Source: Albugo candida (taxonomy: Eukaryota). From it: DNA of 64,000 nucleotides. This document shows, one piece after another, positions 27,289 through 28,809 of this stretch. The notes under the pieces were generated by a model. That model saw only the letters and a program-made list of their open reading frames with translations, was not told the origin of the DNA and ran no database searches. Both the position numbers and the translations under genes were made by a program. Where the stretch lies: assembly GCA_040437565.1 (NCBI GenBank), contig JBDOQK010000027.1, forward strand, positions 186,001 to 250,000, read 5' to 3'. Numbering within the stretch: position 1 is the first letter of the stretch; every line of letters begins with the position of its first letter.

Positions 27289-28809
27289 CGAAACCGTGGG
27301 CGATCACACTGAATACATCATTCAGGTAAATTGCTCACTTATTATCGAACGCATAAAATTACTGCATGTTTTATCTAGATCAACTGTCAAATGGGAAGCT
27401 GGATGATATCGAGACGCTTTAGTGATTTTGATCATCTTCATGCGCGATTAAATCGTCGATTTGGAGACCTCATTGAAGCGAAGCTCCCAGAAAAGCAATG
27501 GTTTGGAAGGTAAGTACTGCTCCGTTAAATTGAAAATCGCACAAATCCATGATTATAATCCTGATGGAACCCGCCTGATTTATTGTGGCTCCTACTTTTG
27601 ATGTGACGCTCAACAACGCTGGTTGAGTTGAATTGATAATTTCGCATAAGTTTTGGTGGTTTATTTTGTATTTCTTGAAGAAGAAGAGCACAATGGATGC
27701 TGACCTCAAAAGCGGCAGATGACAGTGTGATGTATCTACATCACAAAAATCACTTGATCTTATCTGAAACCTTACTAATAAGCCAGAATGCCGAATGCTA
27801 TACGAAGAGATCGTTCTTACTCCCAGCTGCACGTCACGTCGCTGTAGGAAAGTCACGAGGATCCTGGTGGTAAGAATACTATATATTCTGATGTTCCATC
27901 CATGAGATTTTGCTGGCGATTTTTATGAGTGGTGTCCACTAGACGCAACATGCACACTATAATTCTCGCTTTGTAGATTTGATTCTCAATTTCTGGCCAA
28001 GAGGAAGGAAAAGCTGCAGCAATATCTTGGTACCACGCTCTTGTATACCGATGCTTTATTGCCTCACCGCAGCTGTATCTGTTCTGCCTCAAGCGAAACT
28101 TTTGAATGTACCTGGAATTCTGGATGATGTTTCTTTATGTCGATTCTTGGACGTCGAAAAGCATCTGGATCCGAATGGAGAACTTGTCTTGGGACTTGAA
28201 ACACGTAGCAGCGGAGGTGGCAATGCGTGTAGATCCAGCGGATTTCCAATAAACAGAAATGGTATTTTCACGGAGCAAGACAGGCTGAATGCAATCGTGG
28301 ATCATGCAGCTCATGCCTTTATTGATATCAATCAAGTTTCAGAACCACTCGAAGCAGAACAAGTTCGGCAACGCAGAAGCGAGATATTCAATATCGCCCA
28401 TACGTCATCTAACGAGCAGAAAATCAGCGAACACTTTACATCTACTCTGCAGAATTTCGCCGTATGCGTTCCAGCAGCTGATAATATTCTCACTGAGGCA
28501 AAGCTATTGTCCTACTTGGAGGCGTCAGATGATGCTTCTCTACCAGAAAATTCGGCGGATCAGCGCATGGAAATACTATCATTTGAACAACAGAGAGAAC
28601 TTATCGAAACTTGTAGAACCCAAGTGGAAGCTGCTGTGAACAAGAAGCTAGACGCAAAAGCAATTGACGTGGTAGTTGTTATTGACACATTGACACTACC
28701 TTCGGATTCATCAGAAGTCGATAAAAACACGACTTTGGCAGCAGCTCGCTCCTTAACGACACAGTCTAATGCAAGGATGAACAATCCGACGGAAGAATTC
28801 ACAGATTAG
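27289..28809 (+). CDS. PX-domain protein with LAMTOR1-like C-terminal segment (start hidden in N gap)
   Basis: HTEYIIQ/INC..WMISRRFSDFDHLH..LPEKQWFGR/FDSQFLAKRKEKLQQYL..L..FL is a PX domain. Introns at 27326-27378, 27510-27976 and 28030-28093. Confidence 0.8.
27549..27767 (+). ncRNA. Intronic box C/D guide RNA (scaRNA-like), predicted U2 snRNA G25 2'-O-methylation guide
   Basis: CACTTGATCTTA (27751-27762) is the reverse complement of conserved U2 nt 22-33 and lies 1 nt before box D CTGA (27764-27767). C-like ATGATTA at 27549, candidate D' CTGA at 27561 or 27575, C'-like AGATGA at 27717. Confidence 0.7.
27814..27953 (+). ncRNA. Intronic H/ACA snoRNA/scaRNA candidate
   Basis: Hairpin (TTCTTAC..CCAG/CTGG..GTAAGAA), H box AGAATA at 27873-27878, second hairpin, ACA at 27948-27950 plus 3 nt. 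About 140 nt in total. Confidence 0.5.

Follow-up and report, generated by a model that had tools for sequence, protein, structure and literature searches.

In animals, a working spliceosome cannot be assembled unless the 5' region of U2 small nuclear RNA (snRNA) is methylated. At position G25 of human U2, 2'-O-methylation is guided by scaRNA2 (mgU2-25/61; Rfam family SCARNA2, RF01268), according to the table of sites and guides in PMC7960923. Vertebrate introns host small Cajal body-specific RNAs (scaRNAs) of the box C/D type as snRNA methylation guides, and PMC4041459 describes their Cajal-body signal as a stem in which G.U/U.G wobble pairs follow one another. Table 3 of PMC8053127 lists Arabidopsis U2 G26, the equivalent of G25, as methylated and assigns no guide to it, and a Drosophila preprint counts Gm25 among the known sites but could not resolve it by the method used there. 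Here, we describe a 467-nucleotide (nt) intron of a PX-domain gene from the oomycete Albugo candida that, with moderate confidence, carries a box C/D-type guide of atypical build for U2 2'-O-methylation at the G25 equivalent. It lies in a stretch of 64,000 nt (contig JBDOQK010000027.1 of assembly GCA_040437565.1, positions 186,001 to 250,000 of the forward strand), which is referred to as the window and to which all coordinates given below refer.

The human guide pairs with U2 G25 via an antisense element beside a CUGA box (PMC7960923), the same arrangement as proposed here, and it is also long, its Rfam model comprising 420 positions. RF01268, however, went unmatched at every threshold applied, and a kinship with SCARNA2 is therefore not supported by covariance-model searches. 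The Albugo element sits in a spliced intron, whereas scaRNA2 is produced from its own transcription unit. Among intronic box C/D small nucleolar RNAs (snoRNAs), one class relies on external stems formed from flanking intron sequence. The Albugo element likewise has no internal terminal stem, and its flanks pair with each other (helices 27658-27670/27773-27784 and beyond), but with about 114 pairs in the intron the pairing goes far beyond what a helper stem needs. With the vertebrate intronic C/D scaRNAs it shares the location in an intron and an apical hairpin (PMC4041459). It differs from them in its non-canonical box C and terminal stem, and in a hairpin (27726-27745) that is fully Watson–Crick and therefore lacks the wobble stem. 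In Arabidopsis, the equivalent position of a non-animal U2 is methylated (Gm26), and the table in PMC8053127 offers no guide RNA to compare.

A U2-complementary element and a candidate box D in a spliced intron

On its sense strand the intron contains the 12-mer CACTTGATCTTA (27751-27762, plus strand), a single T (27763), and the tetranucleotide CTGA (27764-27767, plus strand), as had been stated in an earlier, preliminary description of the locus. All were read directly from the letters, and the CTGA, which as box D (or D') sets the D+5 rule, was also recovered by pattern search. Guides of this class have an antisense element of at least 10 nt directly before CUGA; here, 12 nt, one further nucleotide and CTGA occupy 27751-27767. 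The element is complementary to nt 22-33 of human-type U2, and a human U2 oligonucleotide printed in PMC3866641 contains the target 12-mer. C27759 is the fifth base 5' of CTGA, and its partner is base 4 of the target 12-mer, corresponding to G25 under the 22-33 numbering. We take the printed oligonucleotide to begin at nt 4, which places G25 opposite C27759. In agreement, all four known Gm positions listed in PMC7960923 (11, 12, 19 and 25) fall on a G with this start. On the human sequence, both the complementarity to nt 22-33 and the assignment by the D+5 rule to G25, a known methylation site with scaRNA2 as human guide, were found as described before.

A search for the 12-mer followed by any base and CTGA, allowing up to two mismatches, gave one match in the window versus 0.06 expected, and a match was obtained in 6 of 100 shuffled sequences. 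For the exact sequence, the analytic expectation is 2.8e-5 per window, obtained by multiplying the 475 CTGA sites of the two strands by 4^-12. By these counts, the U2 match is far beyond chance.

The host intron (27510-27976, plus strand, 467 nt, GT..AG) was identified from the letters and from assembled RNA contigs. Contigs from 4 of 24 sequencing runs (X9, X17, X18 and X20) were compared, none of the 24 being on record as RNA. Uncovered parts of the stretch in X17, X18 and X20 were given no weight as evidence, and run X19, with a share of 0.41, was left aside. A contig of run X9 connects 27507 with 27975 and removes 467 nt with GT..AG ends; because it is spliced over 27510-27976, spliced mRNA is present in X9 and the intron borders are exact. 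By its match to Pfam PF00787 (E 2.8e-9), the upstream exon (27379-27507) codes for part of a PX domain. Thus, sequence, splice joint and domain match agree with the earlier assignment of a 467-nt intron in a PX gene. Among longer proteins, no homologs of the C-terminal exon of this gene were found.

Neighboring introns are much shorter. The one at 28030-28093 has 64 nt (an X9 contig has a loose end at 28029, and its letters continue at 28094), and the one at 27326-27378 has 53 nt as read from the letters, so that the host intron is 7 to 9 times the length of its two checked neighbors. The range of 50-110 nt previously given for neighboring introns agrees with these two, to which its support extends. 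The window contains 14 scaffold gaps of exactly 100 N, one of which (27189-27288) interrupts the PX gene about 220 nt before the intron and leaves the 5' portion of this gene incomplete in the window. On the minus strand, a 150-codon frame open from stop to stop (27473-27922) runs antisense over most of the intron. It matched no Pfam family at E values up to 1 and is probably due to chance.

Candidate D' and C' boxes

Upstream of the antisense element, the intron contains a second CTGA (27700-27703, plus strand) as candidate box D' and the heptamer CAGATGA (27716-27722, plus strand) as candidate box C'. The latter has a GATGA core (AGATGA at 27717-27722) and was recognized by reading, by pattern and in the predicted fold. 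The two boxes are separated by 12 nt able to form a CC/GG mini-hairpin, and they stand in the D'-before-C' order that is found in guides of this class. Together with the CTGA next to the antisense element they form a match (27700-27767) to the pattern CTGA-N3-20-GATGA-N12-42-CTGA, which occurs four times in the window versus 2.19 expected, or at about 0.005 per CTGA site. At this rate, the presence of a D'-C' pair at precisely the guide CTGA is a second, independent oddity. The three other matches, at 1681-1718 (minus strand), 18365-18407 (plus strand) and 31044-31098 (plus strand, antisense to an open reading frame [ORF]), did not resemble guide RNAs.

Between C' and the antisense element lies a perfect 9-base pair (bp) hairpin formed by TGTGATGTA and TACATCACA (27726-27745, plus strand; 100% complementary), which was also present in the predicted fold.

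Rod-like fold of the intron and intron-derived contigs

In the minimum free energy (MFE) fold, the intron forms a rod (27531-27925, plus strand), in which a 5' arm (27531-27670) pairs with a 3' arm (27773-27925) and the tip spans 27671-27772. The stem closing the tip has its 5' strand at 27658-27670 and its 3' strand at 27773-27784 (both plus strand; helices 27658-27665/27777-27784 and 27668-27670/27773-27775). In this prediction, the 102-nt tip houses both CTGA boxes, the GATGA core, the 9-bp hairpin and the antisense element. The sense fold of 27540-27910 has an energy of -111.5 kcal/mol (z -4.49), which none of 100 shuffles equaled. When 371-nt windows across the 64 kb were folded and adjusted for GC content (928 folds), it ranked second, a single fold being more extreme. 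The antisense strand reaches -96.6 kcal/mol (z -2.77) and stands behind 47 of the 928 folds. When the entire intron (27510-27976) is counted, the sense strand is predicted to form 114 long-range pairs (100 Watson–Crick, 14 G.U) and the antisense strand 94 (86 Watson–Crick, 8 G.U). Judged by these folds, the structure of the intron is exceptional and somewhat strand-specific, and the U2 match lies on the sense strand of an intron that is spliced, unusually long and unusually structured. The tip taken alone (27655-27787) gave a z of -1.16, which is not significant.

Contigs of X9, X18 and X20 cover all or part of the intron. Run X18 yielded a contig internal to the intron (27573-27865, plus strand, 293 nt, no differences) with a mean word depth of 9.42 versus 2.2 for its exon contig. 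In run X20, from another study, a contig begins at 27870 and continues into the next exon, and run X9 contains an unspliced contig that traverses the whole intron unbroken at a depth of 10, versus 32.9 at the spliced joint. Contig depth is unfit to rank the parts of a gene, and contigs reveal neither the ends nor the level of an RNA. For this reason, the three contigs are taken as a weak hint that an RNA derived from the intron, longer than 27549-27767, outlives it. The limits 27549-27767 (219 nt) initially proposed for the guide RNA are not reflected in these data, in which 27573-27865 is the sole intron-internal contig. In the predicted rod, 27571-27575 faces 27866-27870, where CCGCC pairs with GGUGG. 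The X18 ends at 27573 and 27865 and the X20 start at 27870 would fit a double-strand cut at this level of the modeled rod, but the agreement may be a coincidence.

Because 100 of the 114 pairs are Watson–Crick and the antisense strand also folds well, the rod could represent an inverted repeat at the DNA level. The intron would then be what is left of a mobile element, or would give a long hairpin RNA that an RNase III-type enzyme cuts into small RNAs, and its match to U2 would be incidental. The almost complete self-pairing of the intron is what such a repeat would produce, the antisense strand beats its own shuffles (z -2.77), and a cut through both strands near 27573/27865 and 27870 would yield the contig ends seen in X18 and X20, which lie opposite each other on the rod. 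Against this origin, blastn found neither similarity between the arms beyond the 20-nt tip hairpin nor a second copy of the intron within the 64-kb window, and the unbroken X9 contig speaks against additional expressed copies in this run. The fold of the sense strand surpasses that of its complement (14 versus 8 G.U pairs; rank 2 versus rank 48), and no target-site duplication was seen at the rod ends on reading. Altogether, we consider an inverted repeat with an incidental U2 match improbable; an inverted-repeat rod would also be compatible with a guide at its tip.

Entry of an endonuclease via a flanking stem is a known route of snoRNA release in yeast. The mature Albugo RNA could have about 300 nt or more and consist of a guide module with a degenerate box C on top of an imperfect duplex of about 100 bp formed by the intron arms, released by an RNase III-type cut near 27571-27575/27866-27870. 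We put this form of the RNA forward tentatively and regard it as rather unlikely.

Box C, terminal stem and host U2

Apart from the inverted-repeat character of the rod, several observations in the intron, in other genomes and in database searches weigh against a guide function. Within the intron, a canonical box C is absent: there is no perfect TGATGA, and every candidate has at least one mismatch (the one-mismatch forms are ATGATTA, CTGATGG, TTGATGT, TTGAAGA, CAGATGA and GTGATGT). The best-placed of these is TTGAAGA (27675-27681, plus strand), which by its position may serve as a degenerate box C. On reading, it permits G.A/A.G pairs with CTGA 27764-27767, a 3-nt bulge and two A-U pairs, and with two adjacent pairs its match is not above chance. 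An enumeration of kink-turn GA pairs gave no partner with at least three pairs adjoining CTGA 27764-27767. In agreement, the stem next to this CTGA has at best 2 bp in kink-turn geometry, and the predicted stem begins 5 nt farther out. Snoscan-like scoring gave at most 2 bp if CTGA 27764-27767 is box D and 4 bp if it is box D' with CTGA 27888-27891 as box D; three of four chance matches from prokaryotes (L009-L011) likewise scored 4 bp, so that the candidate does not rise above these controls. The spacer between TTGAAGA and D' (27682-27699, plus strand) would by position be a second antisense element. It has no known target, and we know of no convincing one among snRNA and rRNA sequences.

Rfam searches of the window gave no match at the gathering threshold and, at E values up to 1, a single unrelated one (62291-62354). 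With E values up to 10, the regions 27400-28100 and 27660-27860 (201 nt) gave noise and no SCARNA2. No U2 gene was found in the window at the gathering threshold either; the complementarity described above refers to human-type U2. The U2 forward primer for the diatom Phaeodactylum given in PMC4247016 reads GGCTTTGAT at the place of the human-type GGCTAAGAT and differs from it at the positions equivalent to nt 23-24. Judged by this primer, stramenopiles vary on the 5' side of the G25 target. The sections consulted of the Utopia retrotransposon paper and of the Phytophthora sojae m6A paper print no oomycete U2 5' sequence. Finally, the four sequencing runs compared show no differing letters in the stretch and are therefore uninformative on conservation.

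A different architecture had been proposed initially. It assigned box C to ATGATTA (27549-27555, plus strand) and box D to CTGA ending at 27767, giving a 219-nt C/D RNA with an extended middle domain based on a stem between 27581-27591 and 27686-27695. Every motif named is indeed present, and C/D scaRNAs of such length exist, as the 420-position SCARNA2 model illustrates. In ATGATTA, however, the GAUG core is incomplete, its G being absent, and the motif forms no stem with the 3' flank of CTGA 27764-27767; in the predicted fold it instead pairs at the far end, or base, of the rod (27548-27551/27901-27904). The long-range stem of TATTGTGGCTC (27581-27591) and GAGCACAATG (27686-27695) has the claimed complementarity (4 and 5 bp, separated by a one-base bulge) but is missing from the MFE fold. 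Moreover, the X18 contig begins past ATGATTA and extends 98 nt beyond box D. This exact architecture is therefore highly improbable, and ATGATTA is retained as a motif, not as a functional box C.

Occurrence of the guide pattern elsewhere

Metagenomes were scanned for the pattern GATG-N0-30-12-mer-N-CTGA, and prokaryote genomes served as control. Seven metagenome loci were obtained versus four matches in 596 Gb of prokaryote genomes; the four prokaryotic matches imply that most of the seven are chance matches, at about chance level. None of the seven loci resembles the Albugo intron or is its ortholog, and on reading none has a CTGA upstream of GATG.

These counts bear directly on the possibility that the complementarity in Albugo is itself fortuitous, the intron being long and structured for another reason, such as folding that draws its splice sites close to each other, and the 12-mer having no guide function. 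The lack of both a canonical box C and an adjacent terminal stem, the absence of an Rfam match and the four occurrences of the guide pattern in prokaryotes are in line with this explanation, as is the differing target region in a diatom. In addition, very many windows were scanned, so that rare random matches must arise somewhere. On the other hand, about 2.8e-5 sites are expected per window, the D'-C' pair adds a further factor of about 0.005, and the match, which addresses a site methylated in animals and plants, has the sense orientation and falls in the only long intron seen. We consider a fortuitous match possible but unlikely. A sense-strand, intron-borne C/D guide that directs D+5 methylation to U2 G25, presumably by pairing with host U2, is the best-supported reading and probably the right one. 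The core of the preliminary description, an oomycete C/D guide for U2 Gm25, is retained on account of the match, the D' and C' boxes and the spliced, structured intron, whereas its box C, its 219-nt RNA and its named stem are not.

Only one of the seven metagenome loci, L005 on a eukaryotic metagenome contig, looks like a C/D RNA on reading. It contains the same 17 bases (12-mer, T and CTGA), preceded at a distance of 10 nt by a GATGA core, and has a weak local match to Rfam SCARNA2 (E 1.4; 12.5 bits versus a gathering score of 48). The locus was picked by the search pattern itself, and the seven matches are near chance level. In L005, the antisense element would follow a box C, with the CTGA acting as D'; the locus is intergenic, whereas the Albugo element is intronic. 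It has no rod-like fold (z of the candidate fold -1.19) and no similarity to the Albugo intron beyond the 17 bases. From its sequence, L005 may represent, in another protist, an independent guide for U2 G25.

The same contig contains, about 100 nt downstream from the U2 antisense copy, a canonical-looking long box C/D RNA of about 174 nt (L005:7620-7793, minus strand). On reading, its 5' end is GAGGA-t-ATGATGA and its 3' end CTGA-t-TCCTC, which together form a 5-bp terminal stem. It is intergenic, upstream of a Ras-like gene, and matched Rfam only weakly (U8-like, E 8.8). The proximity of the antisense copy and this C/D RNA suggests a snoRNA gene cluster.

Proposed working of the candidate guide

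In the model that we favor, the guide module would be the tip (about 27671-27772) of a rod that takes in nearly the whole intron. From 5' to 3' it would consist of a degenerate box C (TTGAAGA, 27675-27681), the spacer 27682-27699, box D' (27700-27703), a 12-nt loop, box C' (27717-27722), the 9-bp hairpin (27726-27745), the antisense element (27751-27762), one base, and box D (27764-27767). After transcription of the PX-gene pre-mRNA, the intron flanks would pair over a long range, thereby joining the ends of the module and shortening the effective intron. The C/D core proteins Snu13, Nop56, Nop58 and fibrillarin would assemble on the box pairs, and the RNA would be released after splicing or via a cut in the rod and then trimmed. 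Pairing of the antisense element with U2 nt 22-33 would allow fibrillarin to methylate the ribose of the nucleotide opposite the fifth base upstream of box D.

Among the entries listed from the oomycete and stramenopile literature on snoRNAs, scaRNAs and snRNAs, judged by their titles and the opening parts of abstracts, none deals with an oomycete snRNA guide, and no literature on box C/D snoRNAs of Phytophthora was found. The G25 site is common to human and Arabidopsis, the latter having no assigned guide in the table of PMC8053127. If the Albugo guide is confirmed, RNA-guided U2 methylation at G25 would go back to early eukaryotes. It would also provide a first anchor for the annotation of snRNA guides in oomycete genomes, and show how a guide RNA is housed in an intron in a genome with introns of 50-60 nt. 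Should the rod RNA of about 300 nt or more prove true, it would be an snRNA guide of novel build and, outside animals, the first to be described for U2 G25; its signature of antisense element plus boxes could then be used to seek the missing guide of the plant site. If the match is due to chance, the locus would be a useful caution against relying on a 12-nt match and a CTGA without box C and a terminal stem.

Other features of the window

A complete CLN3/battenin-like ORF of 397 amino acids (aa) is located on the minus strand at 35007-36200 (Pfam PF02487). Among 120 of 121 matches listed, the deduced protein (35010-36200) has 84% identity to that of Albugo laibachii Nc14 and at most 59% to those of other oomycetes, which places the window in an oomycete near Albugo. 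Its coding sequence contains the most extreme GC-adjusted fold of the 64 kb, in the 371-nt window starting at 35093 on the minus strand. In a further ORF of 365 aa (20404-21501, minus strand), a stretch of 45 residues (EKLQRFAEAQIKAFNN...PWSMR) occurs before and again after a 100-N gap, which looks like an assembly duplication at the scaffold gap.

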